A DNA stretch of 13,929 bases from a virus (lineage: Duplodnaviria > Heunggongvirae > Uroviricota > Caudoviricetes): the IMG/VR virus record IMGVR_UViG_3300032038_000006; one strand, given 5' to 3'. Position numbers and translations under genes: made by a program. Below the pieces are notes generated by a model. That model made no database searches. It was not told the origin of the DNA and saw nothing but the letters and a program-made list of their open reading frames with translations. This document shows, piece by piece, positions 1,353-13,929 of the stretch. Each line of letters starts with the position of its first letter. Position 1 is the first letter of the stretch.

Positions 1353-2594
1353 ATGCCATTAACACCAGATAAAACCTTTACTTGGAATGGGTTAAAGGTT
1401 TATGAATATCTTTTAACAAACCATAATCCTTATGGTATTGATATGCCGGGTTATAATCTTCCTGCTGTTCCGTTGGGCGTTACTGTTCATAATACTGAGG
1501 CTATTTCAGTAGCTTCAAATACTACTCCTGCAGAGCAGTATACTCGTGCAACAGTTAACGGCAATATGAAAGACGTAAGAGTTCATTTCTACGTTGATGA
1601 TTATTGTGCTTGGTAGGGCCTCCCCCTTACTTTAAGTGGTTGGCACGCAGCTGACGGCGGCGGTAATGGTAATAGAAAAACTATTGCTATAGAAGTAATC
1701 GGAAATTCTGCAAAGGCAGAAGCTAACTGTGTAAAGTTAGTAGCTTATTTACTTAACAAATATAATCTTAATGTTGAAGATAATCTTTTTACTCACACTC
1801 ATTGGCTTAATGTCCGTGATGGTATTACTGGAAGTAACGATTATCTTAATACTCGTAAGCATCCATATAAATGGTGCCCAATTTATATTCTCCCTCATTG
1901 GTCAACTTTTAAAGCTAATTGTATAGCAGAGTTGAATAAGTTGAAGGGCGGCACAACTCCAGCAACGTCTGAAATGTATCGTATTCGTAAAGAATGGACA
2001 GATGTTAAGTCCCAGATTGGAGCTTATGCATCACTCGATAATGCAAAGAAGGCCTGGAAGGAAGGCTATAAAGTTTTCAATAGCAAGGGAGAAGTTGTTT
2101 ATCCAACTTCAGCAGCTCCTACTCCAACAACTCCAGCTAAACCAGCAACTCCTGCTGCTCCTGCGGCATCAGCTCAGAAATAGATTGATGTAATTTATAA
2201 AGTCCGTATAAATTCTTGGCTTGGAGAAATAAAGAATTGCAATGATTCAAATGATATGGGATATGCTGGTATTAATTATGCTCCAATAAGATGTTTAATG
2301 GCGAAAGCTTCAGAAGGAGTTCTTCATTATCGTGTTCACATTATTGGTGGCGGCTGGCTTGGTTGGATAACTAAGTATAATGCTAATGACTGGTATAATG
2401 GTTATGCAGGACTCCCAGCTTATATGATTGACGGAGTTCAGGCATATCTCACTGGCGTTGATGGATATGAAGTTCAGTATAGAGTATCCACTGTTGGTGG
2501 TCCTTATTTACCTTGGGTAACTGGAACTTAGGATTATGCCGGTATCTATGGTAGAAAGATTGATAAACTTCAAATGAAAATTGTTAAGAAATAA
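1353..2594 (+). CDS. Endolysin: N-acetylmuramoyl-L-alanine amidase (Amidase_2, XlyA-like) + SPOR-like domain + Pro/Ala/Thr linker + ChW-like cell-wall-binding repeats; 413 aa with 3 in-frame TAG (1614, 2181, 2529)
   Basis: SD AAGGAGGT at 1338-1345. The track ORFs 1353, 1932 and 2256 share one frame, interrupted only by TAG, ending at TAA 2592. Motifs VTVHNT, HFYVDD, W*GLP..SGWHAADGGGNGNRKTIAIE, FTH and KWCP match Amidase_2 (predicted Zn ligands H46/H148/C175, catalytic E114). YRIRKEW..KSQIGAY.SLDNAKK is SPOR-like, and YRVH..GGGWLGW / YRVST..GPYLPWV are ChW-like. Confidence 0.93.
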
Positions 2595-2640: not shown

Positions 2641-2967
2641 ATGGAGAGTATTTTTGCAGCTTTAGGTTTAGGAACTTTAGGCTCAATAAGTGCTATGGCA
2701 TTTTTGACTATGATTATAGTTGAAGTTATGAAAAATGTAGTACCTAAGAAATTCCCTACTTAGATATTAACATTAATTATTGCTCTAATCATTGCTGTTA
2801 TAATTCCATTCCTTGCACCTGGCGTTGTTGTTAGTTTTGCTACTATCGCGGCAAGTGTTCTTAATGGTTTTATTATTGCGTTCATTAGTATGAACGGCTT
2901 TGATTCCCTAAAGAAGATTTGGGAAAGGGTGATAGGAAAGAAGGAGGATGAAGAAAATGGCGAATGA
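2641..2967 (+). CDS. Holin, 108 aa, three hydrophobic segments and a charged C-terminus; 1 in-frame TAG (2761)
   Basis: SD AAAGGAGG at 2626-2633. Sequence: MESIFAALGLGTLGSISAMAFLTMIIVEVMKNVVPKKFPT*ILTLIIALIIAVIIPFLAPGVVVSFATIAASVLNGFIIAFISMNGFDSLKKIWERVIGKKEDEENGE, stop TGA. It is adjacent to the endolysin and missing from the ORF track. Confidence 0.85.
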
Positions 2968-5900
2968 AGGAAAAGAGCGCGAGATAGCCTTTTCTTTGCT
3001 TGAAACTGATGACCTCGGTCTTATTTCTTGGGAAAGTATTATTGATGATTTAAGTACCAATCTTTATATTGATGAAAAGAAAACTGGTGATAATACTTAT
3101 AATGGTAGTAGAAAAGGTTTCGATTAGAAATTTAGAACTACTATACTTGCAGCAGATGCAACTGGTACTCTTCAGGGCGAGTATTTAAATCCCAGACCTT
3201 TAATTAATAAACTCGGATAGACATATAGAGAAGCTCGTCATGACGAGATTCCAATGAATATTCGTAATATGGATTATACTAATAAAATCAAGAGAGAAGA
3301 CGAGGAAGAAGAAAGCGAAGAATATATGGTTGGTAGCCTTACTCTTGAAGAATTATATCATGCACTTGATATATGTAATGATGGTGTTCTTGGTATAGAT
3401 GACGCATGGGCTGTATTGAATATTTATGCAATATATTCAACTCATGCTGAGGCCTATGAAGTTGAATTTTTCAAGCAGATTTTTGAACCAATTACAGAAA
3501 CTGCTTTGAATGAAATTATGACAGAACAAGATACTAACTGGGATGTCGCTTTTGAGCATACCCTTGAATGGGATAGGGAAGGACAGCAATAGGAATATCT
3601 TACTTATGATAATTACCATAATAAGGGTAGCCAATATGCTTATAATGTAATTTATACTAATGAAAATGGTGACGCCATTACTCCCGGCGTATATCCACAA
3701 GATGAATCATATTTTTATGTAGACCATCATCTTGCGAAAGTTCACGGTGTAGACGACGATGACCCAGCAAAATATTATGAATTTATAACTTTTTATGTTA
3801 ATGATTTTGCAGGTAGTTGTAACATAGAAGACTGTGCCAATACTTTAATGTCAAAGATTATAAAAATAAGAAGATAGGGACGTTTAGTTGTTGATGGTAC
3901 ATTAGCTTCAACTATACTTTATCTTGTAGCTAACGCTAAAGGTGAGGGTCATGAAGATAAAGCATATATTACATTTGATGAGTTCTCAACTTTTGTTCAA
4001 GAACATGACGTATTCCCTATGTCTGATGCTGATAAACTTAAGAGATACCTTAATCTTTTAATGCCAAGATACTCAAGAAGAGTTGAGGTAGAAGATTTAG
4101 ATAAGAATTTCTGGGTTATTGGTTAGGTCCTTGATGCTCTTGCAGAGGCCGTATGGAGAGACGATGGTATCGTTGATGCTATTCAAGCTATTATTAAGCA
4201 GTTAAATAACGTTACAAATCAGGTTAATGCTCTTAATATTTTACTTGGTTTGAATGGTGATACCACAATTTCTTTGAGGGGCGGCACATGGGCAACTATG
4301 ACAAATGGATATGACCTTACTAATCTTGTTGCAAGAGTTTAGAGAGGTAATGGTACAAGAGATATATCTATTCCAATTACAAATAGTTATAATATGAGTC
4401 TTGATAATTATGACTATAGTTCTTGGAAAAACTATGTTAAATCTTGGAATAAGCCGCCTTCAGCTTCAGCTTTGGTTAGCGGATGGAATCCAGGTTCAAG
4501 AAAAATAAATGTGTATGATTTGTTCGCTTCTGAAAATGTAGTTCCTTGTTCAGAGACAGCTGCCGGCACAAGCTATTCTATTAACACGACAAGAATTGCA
4601 CACCCATTCTATTATTCATTAGCATAGACAAGTGCAGTTAGTTGGTATTATTCTACTTTAAAATCTATGTGTAATAATGGAGATGAATTTAGGTTTGTTA
4701 AGGATGTAAACATTTTGATGTATAATCCTAACTATTATTCATATAGCGTTGACGACTTAAATAATCCAACTACATTTACTATTACTGAAACAACGGTTTC
4801 AGATAAAACATAGGGTAAGCAAAAATATACATATGATATAACCAAAGTTCTTGCTTATGCAAATAGAAACTTAGCAGAATTAGAATTGATTATGATTAAC
4901 TTTAACCCTAAGTAGGCAGTCACAGATAAAATTGCTGTTGATGCAAGTGGTACTATGCCAACAAATAGTTTTAATAGCTATAACTCATTAGATATGCACT
5001 ATGAAAATGGTGCAAGAACTAATTATCGTTATAATGGTATGACAACTGGTATAAGAAATGCTAAGCTTGACGAAAAGATTGGTATTGGTATTCAGTATTT
5101 TTCTCCCGCTTTAGTAGATAAAGATGGTAGCTCTTTAAGAAAATCAGTTAAAGTTTCTAATGTTTTATCATTAAGACAATCAATGATGAACTCAAGAACT
5201 TCTGAAACATCATCTGTATCTCAACGTTCATTTACAGCAGAATTTCTAAGTGGTAGCGCACCTCTTGCAGTACACACAATGTATGGTGAAAGTGGAAGAA
5301 TTGGAGCTTGCTCATACGTTGTTTCTACTAATAGTTATGATGAAGGTGTTTCACAAGGTCCTATCGCCCAATTCCTAACATATAAGGGAATGGCGCTATC
5401 AAGCGAGGCAGGAAATAGCAGTAGCCTTTAGGCACGCTGCTTTGTTAACGAAAGCGGTAATATTATAAAATATGGCTCTAAGTATTTGCCTATAAAAAAT
5501 AGCTTGGGCGGCCTATTTGATACAATAACAAAAGATGGTACTGTTCTTGGTTGGAAATCTAAAAATGTTATGACATTAGGAGATTTTATTGATTTTACTG
5601 GTAATGACATTTATACTCCGTCTTCAAATAAAATAGCTGGTATTGGTAATATAAGAAGTTTTGTTGAAGGTATAGGATTATAGTATGGTAATGCTTTTGC
5701 CGTTGCAGAGTTCCCAAATGAAATCAATCCTTCTATGGCGCCAAGACTTATAACTGATTTTGTAACTGAAGGAGACGCTCACGTTTCAGACATAAGACAC
5801 TCAAGATAGATTATATTTATTCCTATTTATTATAGTAGAATAGATGGTGGATATAATTACACTATTTATCTTGATTTAACTCAATGCGGTATTGTTATGT

Positions 5901-6274
5901 TTAACTGGCTTGCACAATCAGAATCTTAGATGACTGCAAATAGTGGTAGAAGATTCATCGCTAAAAATCTCGATAATTATTGGCTTGATGGAAATGGCGA
6001 TGTATCAGGAAACTCCGATGGTTCTCACGTACCTATTGGATTTGCTATTATATGTGCTGCCGCAGGTATGCCAGATTTTACAAATCCTCCTGCCGGCACC
6101 GCATGGGCAAATGGATGTGCTACAGTTGATACATTAAATACTTAGCTATTTGGTAAGTCTGTTCTTGGTACTTATATCTTTGAGACAAACTCTCAAGGAG
6201 ATACAAGTGGATTTAATATGCCTCATTTTGCTTTACCTGCTGGTGGGGTAGATATTGATATGAATATAGTTTAA
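2957..6274 (+). CDS. Large hypothetical protein, probably virion-associated; 1105 aa with 14 in-frame TAG
   Basis: SD AAGGAGG at 2941-2947; overlaps the holin end by 11 nt. The track ORFs 3254, 4394, 4955, 5486 and 5930 are all in this frame. TAGs at 3125, 3218, 3590, 3875, 4124, 4340, 4625, 4811, 4913, 5429, 5681, 5807, 5927, 6143, and no TAA/TGA until 6272. The function is inferred from context only. Confidence 0.8.
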
Positions 6275-6326: not shown

Positions 6327-6409
6327 ATTAATAAGTAAAGGATTAGACGTTTCGACTCAAATCTCTACTTTATTATGTAGAAAACAAATTGTACGGAGGT
6401 GCAAAGGAA

Positions 6410-6667
6410 ATGGCAAATGAACAGCGTAAAATGCATGAGTAGGACATAACCTGGGATGATTATGTTGCTCTCGCTGAACAGCCAGACTTTATGAATTAGT
6501 ACAGAGACCAGATATTCTTTGTTACAGATATAGAGTTTTCTGATGCTGTTGAATATTTACTTAACAAAGTAAATGAATTAATGATTAAGTATGATAAACT
6601 TGTCGCAGCTTATTAGGAAGACCACCCCGATTTTGACCCTGACGCAGAAGAGGAGGTTGGTACTTAA
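6410..6667 (+). CDS. Small hypothetical protein, 85 aa, 3 in-frame TAG (6440, 6497, 6614); possible tail adaptor or assembly factor
   Basis: SD GGAGGTG at 6395-6401. Sequence: MANEQRKMHE*DITWDDYVALAEQPDFMN*YRDQIFFVTDIEFSDAVEYLLNKVNELMIKYDKLVAAY*EDHPDFDPDAEEEVGT. Its TAA overlaps the next ATG (TAATG), a typical sign of translational coupling. Confidence 0.8.
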
Positions 6668-8874
6668 TGGGAGTTGTTTTCAGAAATGGTAGACCCTTTG
6701 GAGCGGCCAAAGAAGATGTTACTATTGTAACTAATTTTGAGGATTTAACTAATCTTCCAAATAAAGAAACAAATCATTTATATGTTACTACTTCTGATAA
6801 TACTGAATATTATTGGAATGTTGAGAACAGAGAGTTTGTTCCTTTATCTGCAACTTTTGAGATTGCGGCAGATGAAAACGAGATAGTAATAGGCGATGGA
6901 AAAGGTGGAGTAAAACCACATAGCTTTTGGTTTGCAGAAACGTCAGGAAGTCCTGTCACTTCTGCGAAATTGAAAACTCCTTCACCAACAATAGAAATAG
7001 GAAGTACAATCAGTGTGTCAGAAAACTATTGGGATAATGATAAAAATAATGCTAAATTCTTTATGTCTGGCTCTCCATTACTACAGATGATGAAAAAAGA
7101 AGGAAGTTCTCCTATTATTTCAATGCTTGGTGCTGGTGTCTTTGAGATGTATGCCGATTAGGCACATAATAATTAGATAGCTTATACCCGTACTTTGCCA
7201 AGATTTAGTTCTGGTGAGAAATGTCTGTCTGAAGTTGCTTATTATGCTTATCAAGGTTATTCTCCTTATGGTGGTAACTATACATATTTAAATAATTCAG
7301 AGATTTTTCCATATTTTCATATGTCAAATTCAAGTACAGTTATAATGGAAGGAGCTTCTATTATAAAAACGGCAGACAGTGCAGGCCTTGAAATGGCTGG
7401 TAATGCAGATGTCGTTATTCGTGGCGGAGCACTTACTGATAGTTACGGTAATTAGATTAATTCTGGTTAGATAAGAACTGGTTTATATATGGAGCCAGGT
7501 GCAATGATTAGAATGACAAGAACAGATAGTACCTACGGCGGTGCATATGGACCAATGATTGCTCTTGAAAGTAGTAATTCTGATAAAGGTCCTGGTAAAC
7601 TTGTGCTAACAGCATAGCACAATATCTTTGGTGGAATTTATGACTATGATAGCTCTAATAATTTTGATTTTGATGCTACTTTAGATAAACGTATAATTGA
7701 ATGTAGTGATAGAGTATTCAATAACCGTAGATTTATTTATAATAAATATATTAATCCAGGTTATCTTCCTGCTAATTTAGCTCCGAAACTTTTTTAGCCC
7801 ACATTAAATATTATGGGTAAAACTCACTTATCAATTGGCGATAGCGGATATTTAGCTGCTAAAATTGCACCAGATAAAGATGCTTATATTTCTATTGATT
7901 GGAGTGGATGGGGATATGAAGATGTCAAAATTGGTGCAGGCAAAGATGCAATAGTAACATTTAATATGTGTCATGGTAAAGAAGCAGTTGCAATGTATAA
8001 TATTGAGCCAGAAGCAAAAAGTAATACTACTTTTAATTATTGTCCAAATGGTGTTTCGAGTATTAACTATGCGCCGAAAGGTAGTTGTGCAATATCTTTT
8101 ACTCCAAATTTAATGACAGAAATAACTTGTCAATGGGATACTTTGGATGCCCTAATTGAAGGTGATAATGCTTATATCCAAACATCAGGAAATTTCCATA
8201 CTGAATTGCATGGCGGTTCATTTATAATGAGAACCACAACTCCCGCAAATGATAACATTATTTATGGCGGCCATCCAAGTAATTCACATTTAGAAAGAGA
8301 TTGGACTACATTTGTATAGAATGATTCTGAACCTGTCTTTTAGATGTATGATAAATCTAACTTTGCAATGGCAGCGGATATTGTAAGAGAATATACTGGA
8401 GTTTATAGTTTTACAAATCCAACATCAATGTCACAGTCAGATTTTGAAGCCTCTGCTGAATATCAAACTTTTTTAGATGAACTTGCTACATATAATAGAA
8501 CTTTAATATCATATACCATAAGAAATGAAAGCAATAATAGTGGTTATATCGTTCATATTAAATATAAATTTACAAATGATACTCCAAGAGTTGCTCCAGC
8601 TACATCCACCCATGCTCCTGTTTTTGAAATGTATGGAGAGTCAGAGTTGCGTCTTCGTGATGGAGCTTCTATTAGAGGTACAACAGTTAATAATGAAATT
8701 CAATTCCAATTTGATGATGGAACTAATTCAGTTAGCTTTACAGTTGCGGAATTAACTGCTCTTAAACGCTTTATTGGAACTCTTCCTTCAAGAATTGCTA
8801 ATAATGATAGCGAAGCGACAGAGCCAAATACTTTATATTTTATTCCAGGAGGCGATGAGATTAATGCAAATTAA
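6667..8874 (+). CDS. Putative tail fibre/spike-like protein, paralog A; 735 aa with 8 in-frame TAG
   Basis: SD AGGAGGT at 6651-6657. The track ORFs 6667, 7195, 7813 and 8344 are in frame. TAGs at 7159, 7174, 7453, 7468, 7615, 7795, 8317, 8341; stop TAA 8872. It is colinear with 10345..13179 and rich in Gly/Ser/Asn short beta-repeats. The function is inferred. Confidence 0.75.
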
Positions 8875-10234
8875 TGAACAATTCTGGGGCAGCGAATCTT
8901 AGTCACAGGTATGGGTGCCTGATGTTACTATCACTAATTACGATATACTTAATGCGTTTAATCAAACGGGAGGTTCTGCTTGGACTCTACCATTAAATGA
9001 TGAACTTGACACATCAATATGCCCATGGGCTATTAATAAAGATGCGGATATATTAAAGCTTACTTATCCTGTATCACATCGAATCGGTACAGACGGTTAT
9101 AACTGGGCTGAACCTAAATTTTATCCTGTCCACGATTATGAATCTGAGATAAGTGGTATTCCAGTTTACTTTGCAGTGCCTGGTTATACTGGTGGCGGAG
9201 CAAATAGTTTCAATTGGTCTGCTCGTAATGGTAATGATGTCATATAGATATAGAATGCATTGTTCAGAAATATGATATATCCTGTCAGAAACTTTGATTA
9301 TTCTAAACTATGTGTAAGTGTATGTATTCTGTATACAGATAGTGCAACAACTACAGATAATGTTGACCCTGGCACGTTTGATTACTACTTTACATCAGGT
9401 CAAGAGTCTTGGCGTGCTACTCATCCAATAGCAGGAATTGGTTTCCAGATATATGGTCGTGGCTGGGATAGTGATTATCCTAATGCATGGCAGCCTACAC
9501 ATCCTACATCAGGACAGCAAATGTTAATAAATACAATGGGCCGTAAAAAGCCTTGTGAGATAGCTCCATCAGATACTACGGTTGGCTATAATGTTGATTA
9601 TAAAGACGACTTTATGACACTTGTTAATGGTAACTTACTCAACGGTCTTGCTATCGGTGCATGGGCTAATAATTATGGTGGTAATGGTTGGACAGTTATA
9701 TCGCCTGATGGTAGCACTTGGGCACAGTCATATGAGCAAGGTGCGGCTGCAGAATTATCAGCCAGTGAGAGTAATCGTCCTATTCCTAAAGTACCTATGC
9801 TTGAAGGTGAAGAGAACACTCATTGGCGTATTTACTCTAACTGGGCAGGTACAAGAGAAGTTTATTTTAAGACTATTCTTGATGCGTCAACATTTGCTGA
9901 TGAAGAGGAGCTTAAGGCATATATACTTAGACAGGCTGCTTATCTTGGTATGTGGATATATACTAATGGAACTCCGCAAGGAGACCCTGGTTCTGATGAA
10001 CATTGGTATCTTGGTGAAATTGGTTCTAATGGTGTTACAACTGGTAGATATAAACAAGGCTCTTCAACTTCCGAGCTTGATAATTCAACTTGGGAAAGTC
10101 CTTGGGATAGTTCTGGCTGGAATGGTAGATAGCCCGAACCTGGTCCAACTCCAGTATCAAGTGGAAGAATTTTATTTACTGGAGACAATCCTCCAACAAC
10201 GACCAGAGAAATTGTAAGAATAAAAATCAATTAA
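8864..10234 (+). CDS. Hypothetical, probably tail-associated protein; 456 aa with 4 in-frame TAG (8900, 9245, 9251, 10130)
   Basis: SD GGAGG at 8848-8852; ATG 8864 overlaps the end of paralog A (alternative in-frame ATG at 8855). The track ORFs 8915 and 9260 are in frame; stop TAA 10232. It has a Pro-rich linker (QPEPGPTP) before a short C-terminal segment. Confidence 0.75.
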
Positions 10235-10241
10235 GTATAAT
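10212..10241 (+). promoter_or_regulatory. Possible sigmaA-type promoter for paralog B
   Basis: TTGTAA(10212-17), 18-nt spacer, TATAAT(10236-41). The -35 match is imperfect and the context is AT-rich. Confidence 0.35.
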
Positions 10242-10291
10242 TAAGGACAAATTGTTGAAATAACACAAGTTCTTTATAAAAATTAAAATGC

Positions 10292-10319
10292 GCCGCCCTT
10301 CTAAAATCTGAGGGGCGGC
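10292..10319. other. GC-rich intergenic hairpin (not a canonical + strand terminator)
   Basis: GCCGCCCTTC/GAGGGGCGGC form a 10-bp stem (one G-U pair) with an 8-nt loop. There is no U-tract on the + strand, but an A-rich run upstream gives a U-rich tail on the - strand. Confidence 0.6.
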
Positions 10320-10344
10320 ACACTATGATAGGAGGTAATAATAA

Positions 10345-13179
10345 ATGGGAATTATATTTCGTAATGGGATTCCCTTCGGCACAGCGGAAGATGATGTGAC
10401 TACTGTCTATGCCTATGAAGACCTTTTCGATTTGACTGATAAGAAAGAGAACCATTTATATATAGTTGAAGAAACAAGTATCCCTTATCGCTATGATGTT
10501 GAAACCGAGCAGTTTTATCCTTTAGGTAAAGATATGACTATACCAGGTGAGAATAATCAAGTAGTTGTTGCCGATGGTTAGGGAAAAGCAAAAGCTAATA
10601 CTGGCGGTTTTTATGCCTCTGGAAGCGATAATATTAGTAAAATGGATTTTGCATATCCTGAACTGGAATTAAAATCTTTAACTGAATACGCTCCAGATAC
10701 ATATTGGGGATTAAATAAGAATGAAGCTAAAATTCATTTAAAAGGAAATCCTTTATTGTAGATGATAAATCAGGAGAATGGCGGACCAATTATCTCTATG
10801 CTCGGTAGAGGCATAATTGATTTTAAAGGCGACTCTGATAGCCTCGAAGATTGTACCAATCCCAATTAGGCTTAGAGAAAATAGTCTTCATAGCCGACTT
10901 GGATGTCTGAGAATGCATATAAAGTATATAGCACTACTCTTTCTCCTTTTAGTGATAAATATATGAATGAAGAGGATACTATTTATCCATTGCTTTCTTT
11001 GAAACATTGCGCTACTATTTAGGCAACAGATACTGCGCTCGCTCAATTTACTGGTGGTTCATCTTTTGTCATTGGTGGTAATGCAGATGTTACTATTCGT
11101 GGAGCAAATGACATGAAATTTCCTTCCGTAAGATATGGTAGAACGAGAGTAAATATTGAACCTGGTTCGCATTTCATTATGCAAATGAATGATGATGGAT
11201 AGTAGTACCCTACAGCTCCGTTCTTCCTAATGGAAGGTTCTAAAACTGGAGGATAGATTATTCTATCAACAGCACTTAGGGCTACAACAGGAAAATGGAC
11301 AGAATTTAATGAAGGATATTCAAATTTCAATGGTATTAAATTTTTTGAGGGTCGTTCTCATCTTTTAGTTGATTGTAGTTCACATAATATTTTTGGAAAT
11401 GGTAAGAAGATTTGGTTTAAACTTGATGGGTATAGTATTAAAACAACAGAATTCCATTCCCAGATGGCGAAATATGAAAATACTACTTGCGTATTTTAGG
11501 GAAATACAAATTTAGTAATCGGAGACAGTGGACATATTGGAATGAGAATAGGTCCAGATTCCGGAGGAGATATATTGGTTGACTGGACTCCTTGGACAGA
11601 TACAGTAACAAATATTAAATTTGGTGGTATGACAGGTTCTGCATAGGAATATGCAATTGAGCCAGATACTGATGCAGTTCAATATGTTAAGTTTGGTACA
11701 GACAAAGGCGGAGCAACCATTTTTAATATAATCCCTCATGGGATGACTTCTTTCCAATTTTGTCCAGAAAATATTTTTGGTATGACAGTAACTCCGTCTT
11801 CTACTAATATTGTGTGTCAATGGAAACATTTAACAGGTATTTTTGAAGGACGAGATGTTTTCATTTAGATAGAAGATAATATTCATAAAGAAATGTTAAA
11901 CAATTCTATTTTTATACAAAAGGGATATTCAGACTCATCAATTAATATGAGTGATACGACAATAGATGTAAATAAAAAGAGATAGGTTGATTTAGAAAAT
12001 TTTTATATTCCAACTTCTTATACAGATTTTGAAGATTATTATAGTAATGATTACAATAAAACAATTTTCCATAGTGCAATAATGCACGTAGATAGTCTAA
12101 GTGAAAGTCTCATCCCTGACCAGTATACTAATTAGTATGTTAGAAAAACTAATTCTTATAAAAAAAGGATGTATCAAACAAGATTTAGCTGTAGCGATTA
12201 TTTTGAAATGATTATTTCTTATGTTTCAGATACTTTATATACAGAAGACGAAGATTTTAATGCAGCACAATATTTCGGTGCTTTTGCAAGCACATATCAA
12301 ATTAGTGGCAATTTGTCTTCTGTAAGAAGTAGTAAGTTATTAGGATATTATAATGGTAAATACTATTATCAAGCTGTACTCAGTGTTTATATCAAGAACT
12401 TCTTCTGCTATACTTTTAATCAGTACACTGTTGATATGAAATACAGTAAAATAGACAGCGAAGATAAATAGCTTATCATTCGATAGATGCACTTTAAAGG
12501 CTGTGATTTAAGCAGTCGAGCTACAGTAGTACAATCAGAACCGGTTGAAGTTTCTAATCCTGAATATACAATTACTACATCAATACAACATTTAGGAGAA
12601 GATTGGTCTCGTCCAATTTAGTAGGGCGGCGAAAATAGAAATGCTAATGGTTCTATTATTCAGACATATGATGCTTCAAACTTCTTAATGCGTTCAAATT
12701 TACCTAAGCCGGCAGCCTATAGCGGTGCAAACATAACCGTCGCAAATGACTATACTGGATATACAGATAAGAGAGAATTAATTACAGCCTTCAAAAATTC
12801 AGCTGATTATGATACTTTCTTAAACTCAATATCTTTCCCTAATGAATATGAATTATGGGATATTTAGGATATTACACCACAAACATCAACTAATGTTATT
12901 GTTTTATATACAGCTAAGAAAGTGGGTTGGGATGCTCACCTTAAATCTGTTGCTGATAATCCTGTTTTAGAATTAACTGGACAATCAGAGCTAAGATTGT
13001 ATGATGATATTTACATTAAGGGCGAAGTTGAATATGGTACTCCTGTCTATACTTTTGGAGACTCTAAACACCCAGAAGATTAGGTTAGCTTTACTCTTGC
13101 AGAACTTAAAGCCCTTAAAGATTTAATTGTAAATCCACCTACTCCTCCACTCGCACCTGCCGAGAATCAATCATTCTAA
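10345..13179 (+). CDS. Putative tail fibre/spike-like protein, paralog B; 944 aa with 21 in-frame TAG
   Basis: SD AGGAGGT at 10330-10336. The single frame is broken only by TAG (10579, 10759, 10867, 10873, 10882, 10891, 11020, 11200, 11203, 11254, 11497, 11644, 11866, 11983, 12133, 12469, 12484, 12619, 12622, 12865, 13081); stop TAA 13177. Homology to paralog A continues across the TAGs from the N- to the C-terminus. Confidence 0.8.
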
Positions 13180-13192
13180 GAGGTGAATAATA

Positions 13193-13929
13193 ATGAGTGA
13201 ATATAGAATACAAGATACTACACTTACTGGTATTGCAGATGCTATCCGTTCAAAGACAGGTAGCGCTGCAACAATTATGGTAAGTGAAATGGCAGATGAA
13301 ATTGAATCAATTCCAACTGGCGGTGGAGGAAGCAGCATTCCTTTCATTGGTGGAATTTCCAATGTTACAGAAAGATTTGATTTAAATTTAGCAACTTTAA
13401 TGCTTGAAGTAAATGCTCCAGATTATAGTTAGACAAGGGTTGCATCAACAATAATTTTTGAATATAATAATTCATGGGAACTTTGTGTGGCTTTTACTCC
13501 AATATATGTGACCAATAAGGTTGGGTGTATAGTTGGAACCGACTCAGAGGACTGTTATTATGATAATCCTTCTCTCGAATTAAGAACATCTGGCGGTGAG
13601 TATACAGAATGCTGGTTTGGTTTTACAAACAATAACAGGTCTTGGACTTATGATAAAGGTATAACATTTGATGAGCCATTAGTTCTAAATGAGGAATATA
13701 TACTCAAAATGGGAGTTAATGAAAATGGTTATGCTTATGTTACTCTTACAAGAGCGAGTACTGGAACGATAATTTTAGATGACCTTAGTACAGAAACTGT
13801 ATCTCAAACAAATAGTTATAAGAGACGTTTAGCATTAGGTTGCAATGCAAGAAATTCAAGATTCACTGGTATTGCAAATTTTAATTTAGCTAAATGTTAT
13901 TATAAAGAAAATGGAATTACTCTTTGGGG
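13193..13929 (+). CDS. Putative tail-accessory / receptor-binding protein (3'-truncated, more than 245 aa; 1 in-frame TAG at 13430)
   Basis: SD GAGGTG at 13180-13185. The N-terminus TLTGIADAIRSKTG...SEMADEIESIPTGGG is a motif I recognise from Bacillota phage tail-accessory proteins. After the TAG the frame stays open to the window end with a beta-rich, possibly concanavalin/LamG-like domain. Confidence 0.7.

Follow-up and report, generated by a model that had tools for sequence, protein, structure and literature searches.

In a 13,929-nucleotide stretch of DNA from an uncultivated large phage (Caudoviricetes; IMG/VR record IMGVR_UViG_3300032038_000006), hereafter called the window, the codon TAG very probably encodes glutamine (Gln), as in genetic code 15, with TAA and TGA kept as stops. 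A preliminary description of this DNA had taken TAG for a synonymous Gln codon, and that proposal is upheld by codon swaps between orthologs, by columns of a protein family alignment, by a TAG codon of the endolysin gene (TAG88) that stands opposite Gln, and by the use of TAA and TGA as the only stops.

Under the standard code, the plus strand of the window falls into many short open reading frames (ORFs). When TAG was treated as a sense codon, seven contiguous ORFs of 413, 108, 1108, 92, 735, 486 and 944 amino acids (aa) were obtained, with 54 in-frame TAGs read through (55 in eight genes, if a 3'-open ORF at 13193-13927 is included). The frames are interrupted by TAG only, and the eight complete genes end in TAA (six genes) or TGA (two genes), never in TAG. 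A measure of ORF density on both strands was uninformative; the DNA is AT-rich. The genes on which the codon comparisons are mainly based are as follows:

1353..2594, plus strand: endolysin (P0003), 413 aa, three TAGs, Amidase_2
2948..6274, plus strand: late protein (P0004), 1108 aa, 14 TAGs
6667..8874, plus strand: paralog A (P0001), 735 aa, eight in-frame TAGs, stop TAA
10345..13179, plus strand: paralog B (P0002), 944 aa, 21 in-frame TAGs, stop TAA

TAG accounts for 21-50% of the Gln positions in the larger genes, and it is the sole Gln codon (100%) of a small holin-like gene. With TAG counted as Gln, the Gln content of the larger late genes amounts to 2.2-4.6%; without it, that of the two paralogs is 1.1-2.3%.

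Codons facing TAG in paralogs, orthologs and the endolysin

Paralogs A and B are true relatives: in BLASTP, with about 29% identity, the N-terminal ~520 aa matched at E = 6e-66 and the C-terminal ~190 aa at E = 5e-13. An insert of ~220 aa in B shifts the C-terminal part in a global alignment. Both proteins were realigned as two local segments, TAG being replaced by X to keep Q from influencing the placement. The preliminary description had pointed to three positions at which TAG in one paralog and CAG or CAA in the other face each other. All six codons were read at the coordinates it had given, and the masked alignment returned the same three pairs, with the exchange running in both directions:

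7084..7086, plus strand: CAG, Gln140 of A, in the SPLL-Q-MM motif; faces TAG139 of B
10759..10761, plus strand: TAG, residue 139 of B; faces Gln140 of A; also TAG in the 81%-identical ortholog of contig L004
8179..8181, plus strand: CAA, Gln505 of A; faces TAG508 of B
11866..11868, plus strand: TAG, residue 508 of B; faces Gln505 of A
8341..8343, plus strand: TAG, residue 559 of A, in the PVF-Q-MYDxSNF motif; faces Q773 of B
12661..12663, plus strand: CAG, Gln773 of B; faces TAG559 of A

The tabulation of residues opposite each TAG, which had also been suggested, yielded 22 columns, with Q in three, S in three, K, G and Y in two each, and ten singletons. Since Gln encoded by CAA or CAG represents 1.65% of the aligned A/B residues, finding it at least three times opposite 22 TAGs has a binomial P of 0.0055.

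A profile of the family matched 93 members among 1.84 billion representative proteins, 40 of them at E <= 1e-30. For three members whose contigs were fetched, the DNA gives the database protein only if TAG is translated as Q. The Q residues of database homologs are therefore circular as evidence, and the DNA of the homologs has to be read. The earlier suggestion to extend the comparison to homologs from related phages is informative with their DNA, which supports Gln, and calls for caution with database proteins.

Close orthologs were compared codon by codon in contigs L004, L005 and L006, with TAG masked and at an identity of at least 70% (L007 was omitted as a duplicate of L006). In 3630 columns, 68 contained TAG: 39 paired TAG with TAG and 16 paired TAG with CAG or CAA, and the remainder were E (four), K (three), T, S and Y (two each). 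The partner spectrum of CAA/CAG itself was nearly equal to that of TAG (TAG 16, E4, K3, R2, A2). In 10 of the 16 swaps the partner was CAG, from which TAG differs by a single transition, even though these genes use CAA for Gln more often. TAG was faced by 12% of the Gln cells compared to about 1% of those for Glu, Lys or Tyr; the counts were 2/441 for Tyr, 0/98 for Trp and 0/252 for the TTR codons of Leu.

In a gene-by-gene table, for which contigs L008 and L009 were added, 4 of 49 window TAGs from five genes faced neither TAG nor CAG/CAA in the nearest orthologs. The eight TAGs of paralog A corresponded in both orthologs to TAG (six) and CAG/CAA (two), and the 21 of paralog B to TAG (11), CAG/CAA (seven), AAA, TCT and TAT (one each). 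In the 1108-aa protein, all 14 TAGs were TAG or CAG in orthologs of 94-96% identity, and the three of the endolysin were TAG, CAG and TAG.

The same two contigs entered a DNA-level alignment of 12 family members, in which the three positions of the paralog pair had the following composition:

Column 1 (Q140 of A, TAG139 of B): TAG 3, CAG 2, CAA 2, GAA 2, GGT 1, ATT 2
Column 2 (Q505 of A, TAG508 of B): TAG 4, CAA 4, AGC 2, TTR 2
Column 3 (TAG559 of A, Q773 of B): TAG 5, CAG 7, nothing else

Just three columns are invariant in an alignment of 30 family proteins, and column 3 (Q559) is among them. Among the residues that share columns with TAG in the 12 members, Gln was enriched 4.6-fold, compared to 1.7 for His, 1.65 for Glu, 1.64 for Lys, 0.86 for Tyr and 0.13 for Trp.

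The endolysin offered a comparison with genes of the standard code. Its Amidase_2 domain (PF01510) scored 48.3 bits in Pfam (cut-off 26), and the protein matched PHROG endolysin families (phrog_15001, 3e-83). The homologs used were endolysin genes of other phage records whose matched stretch is open under the standard code, namely those of Ruminococcus phage NatCom_23091 (61% identity), Faecalibacterium phage FP_Mushu (41%) and an unannotated faecal contig (60%), and the AWQxLP and GWHA motifs aligned with all three. The codon in question is:

1614-1616, plus strand: endolysin TAG88, residue 88, in the AW-Q-GLP motif

TAG88 faces Gln in all three homologs, within an otherwise invariant block, and the peptide predicted over this site is AW-Q-GLPLTLSGWHAADG. 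In line with this, the remark in the preliminary description on an amidase W*GLP motif proved accurate, the motif being AWQ(N/G)LP. The endolysin also points to a Gram-positive host of the Clostridia type rather than one of the Bacteroidota, because its nearest relatives come from Ruminococcus and Faecalibacterium phages.

Suppressor tRNAs and competing readings of TAG

The window is taken as part of a late block of lysis and tail-fibre-like genes. Its TAGs are most likely read by amber-suppressor tRNAs (anticodon CUA) that the phage encodes outside it, and host ribosomes would finish the late genes only after these suppressors are expressed. TAG drifts back and forth to CAG/CAA, among orthologs as well as between paralogs, and the three reciprocal swaps are a product of this. 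The data show that TAG is a sense codon which behaves as Gln and that close relatives have suppressor tRNAs; we infer which synthetase charges the suppressors and their role in late-gene timing.

Candidate suppressors were found in relatives of the phage. The closest relative found, with 94% identity to the window in both the endolysin and the 1108-aa protein, has a tRNA array on its contig, and two tandem tRNA(CUA) genes are located there at L044:12683-12838. They are 66% identical to each other, and both are 100% identical between this phage and the IMG/VR contig G002, which encodes an ortholog of paralog A with 80% identity and a version of the 1108-aa protein with only 38% identity; the 1108-aa proteins of the two phages that share these tRNAs are likewise only 38% identical. 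Both tRNA(CUA) start with a U1:A72 pair, as does phage tRNA-Gln. Their Gln identity is assigned because of the codon data, not from the tRNA sequence.

With regard to the tRNA genes themselves, the array of the closest relative comprises 19 genes (L044:11392-17140), with the tandem pair inside it; L016:355-510 is also listed. There were 49 tRNA matches on contig G002. By default, ARAGORN labels the CUA tRNAs as 'Pyl'. At gathering scores, Rfam recovered the L044 tRNAs only and nothing in the window, and a theta or hepatitis delta virus (HDV)-like ribozyme beside the suppressors was not found. In two more distant relatives (G003 and G004), whose fetched stretch is mostly not recoded, ARAGORN reported a tRNA with an undetermined two-base anticodon 'tt' (L015:1933-2006 and L014:1936-2009), near tRNA-Gln(UUG).

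Several observations weigh against Gln. In the paralog pair taken alone, TAG is opposite something other than Gln in 19 of its 22 aligned columns, and Ser is as frequent there as Gln; the BLOSUM62 sums (Ser +2, Gln +1) do not separate the two. In close orthologs, about 45% of the non-identical partners of TAG are not Gln, although the spectrum of CAA/CAG is alike. A tRNA search of the window found none, so that suppressors are shown in relatives only, and the tRNA(CUA) are 61-68% identical to phage tRNA-Gln (Gln-UUG, and Gln-CUG of G002) and about equally near several other tRNAs. The swaps between the paralogs had been presented as an internal proof that needs no external database. This was overstated: the pair alone is suggestive, a good clue in which Gln is enriched opposite TAG, and it falls short of proof because only 3 of 22 TAG columns face Gln and Ser is equally frequent. 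Proof-level strength comes from the DNA of related genomes, not from the paralog pair.

The existence of two distinct CUA tRNAs, both conserved without change across phages with strongly diverged 1108-aa proteins, could mean that the two are not redundant, one being charged differently or acting at another stage, and that TAG decoding is conditional or dual; we give this only a slight chance. Should the host be a member of the Clostridia without glutaminyl-tRNA synthetase, a Gln suppressor would need the route via glutamyl-tRNA synthetase (GluRS) and GatCAB transamidation. Ambiguous decoding as a general account of the TAGs, through two tRNAs that insert different amino acids or through a stop that becomes Gln with the stage of infection, seems slighter still. 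For such phages, the current hypothesis is that TAG means stop early and Gln late (10.1101/2021.08.26.457843; PMC9523058), and a stage-dependent reading of this kind is compatible with Gln in the late genes and hardly a true rival to it. As to two amino acids, TAG and CAA/CAG have matching swap spectra and a second favoured residue is absent; the swap data do not call for dual decoding.

A sense codon for a residue other than Gln (Glu, Lys, Ser, Tyr, Leu, Trp or pyrrolysine) is less probable again. Beyond the tie with Ser in the paralog pair and the lack of a clear clustering of the tRNA(CUA) with tRNA-Gln, this option could draw on Glu and Lys, the next commonest partners of TAG in the orthologs. 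However, CAG/CAA make up 16 of the 29 non-identical partners there and any other residue at most four, the share of Gln cells facing TAG exceeds that of Glu, Lys or Tyr, Gln is invariant opposite TAG88, and column 3 of the family contains only TAG or CAG. At one position of ThyX, three relatives carry CAG or CAA, which likewise agrees with Gln. Pyrrolysine machinery was not seen in the fetched loci, which span only part of the genomes. That the TAGs are real stops in pseudogenes, split genes or rarely read-through genes, as the fragmented standard-code ORFs and a window devoid of a suppressor tRNA might suggest, is the least credible option, since homology crosses 8-21 TAGs per gene at 80-96% identity in several independent metagenomes, 39 TAG positions are kept as TAG, the frames are broken by TAG only, the genes end in TAA or TGA with coupled starts, and relatives carry suppressor tRNAs.

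The paralog family and the neighbouring genes

TAG as a Gln codon occurs in the endolysin, holin-like and fibre-like genes of the window, which contains late genes only; the gene at 3-1031 is free of it. The remaining features are:

3-1031: gene without TAG, GC 0.44 compared to about 0.35
2641..2967, plus strand: holin-like small protein, 108 aa, one TAG, stop TGA
6389..6667, plus strand: small conserved protein, 92 aa, three TAGs
8774-10234, plus strand: ORF between the paralogs, 486 aa, four TAGs as listed (from the GTG at 8915, about 440 aa and three TAGs)
13193-13927, plus strand: 3'-open ORF, whose end is not reached in the window

The holin-like protein matched phrog_18218 (1e-13) and the holin family phrog_1299 (1e-4). 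The start of paralog A overlaps the TAA of the upstream 92-aa gene (TAATG). L004 and L006 encode the 92-aa protein with 96-97% identity, and its gene directly precedes the first fibre-like gene in all three genomes (window, L004 and L006); its match to the Pfam family crAss001_48 was weak and below threshold (E = 0.006). For 3-1031, 8915-10234 and 13193-13927, a counterpart was absent from every related locus fetched, and these ORFs resemble strain-specific insertions into a set of conserved late genes.

Paralogs A and B belong to a mosaic family in which the N-terminal ~90 aa and the C-terminal ~180 aa are common and the central parts are exchangeable; some members join a B-type N-terminus to an A-type C-terminus. 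Two or three copies per genome were present in the loci examined. We infer that A and B are probably mosaic tail fibres or receptor-binding proteins, because of their site after the lysis genes, their size and their mosaic architecture. A motif of the form P-V/I-x-x-M-x-G-x-S-x-L/F-x-L/M occurs three times per paralog (SPIISMLGAGVFEM, PVFQMYDKSNFAM and PVFEMYGESELRL; window 7090-7170, 8330-8370 and 8610-8680). Its copies mark the borders of the conserved end modules, and the invariant Gln encoded by TAG or CAG sits in the second copy.

Neither the paralogs nor the 1108-aa protein matched any Pfam or PHROG family, and a profile search gave no match for the paralogs among PDB sequences. An AlphaFold2 (AF2) model of paralog A was poor (mean predicted local distance difference test score, pLDDT, 60.6) and its BFVD matches were meaningless; a model of the C-terminal domain (mean pLDDT 73.7) had zero fold matches in PDB at E <= 0.001. 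A search of IMG/VR with the A/B alignment returned no related loci, and an exact 44-mer taken from the window did not occur there either. An exact-match query with the product of the first gene was likewise empty. Neither megablast of the whole window nor tblastn of paralog A and of the 1108-aa protein gave a match in 50,697 deposited phage records; of the three proteins searched by tblastn, only the endolysin matched.

Comparison with known recoded systems

The region needs annotation with translation table 15, as gene calling under the standard code shatters the lysis and fibre genes. Codon swaps between paralogs and orthologs offer a cheap route to the meaning of a reassigned codon, given homolog DNA; this DNA is needed because public protein sets, already translated with TAG as Q, would render any such comparison circular.

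Several gut phage clades have been described that recode TAG to Gln in late and lysis genes and carry suppressor tRNAs of their own, and those with genetic code 15 include crAss-like phages, Lak megaphages and the gemstone-named clades of Borges et al. (10.1101/2021.08.26.457843). Metaproteomics confirmed the recoding for crAss-like phages (PMC9523058), and it was also reported for the Phassvirus group of large gut phages (phAss-1, 135,976 bp; PMC10607447).

Like the crAss-like, Lak and Borges phages, the window has in-frame TAGs in structural and lysis genes, an exchange of TAG with CAG/CAA, and TAA and TGA as stops, and tRNA(CUA) is phage-encoded, in this case in the relatives of the window phage. 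Its recoded endolysin and holin-like genes fit the lysis gating proposed for code 15 phages. A similar principle operates in Escherichia coli supE, where a CUA-anticodon tRNA-Gln competes with release factor 1 for UAG and inserts Gln there. As in supE, a CUA-anticodon tRNA would insert Gln at UAG; unlike in supE, suppression in the window phage would be a built-in, genome-wide coding strategy, and up to half of all Gln codons in its larger late genes are TAG.

The recoding phenomenon is thus already known, the known mechanism is unchanged by this phage, and the difference from known code 15 phages is in lineage only. In contrast to the crAss-like phages with proteomic validation, recoding in the window phage is known from DNA alone. 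Its lineage differs from those of the crAss-like, Lak and Borges phages, paralog A and the 1108-aa protein being without a detectable match in deposited phage records; as these records are assumed to include the GenBank relatives of phAss-1, it would differ from that phage as well. Compared to these systems, the window phage represents one further large lineage that recodes TAG, and one that probably infects Clostridia.

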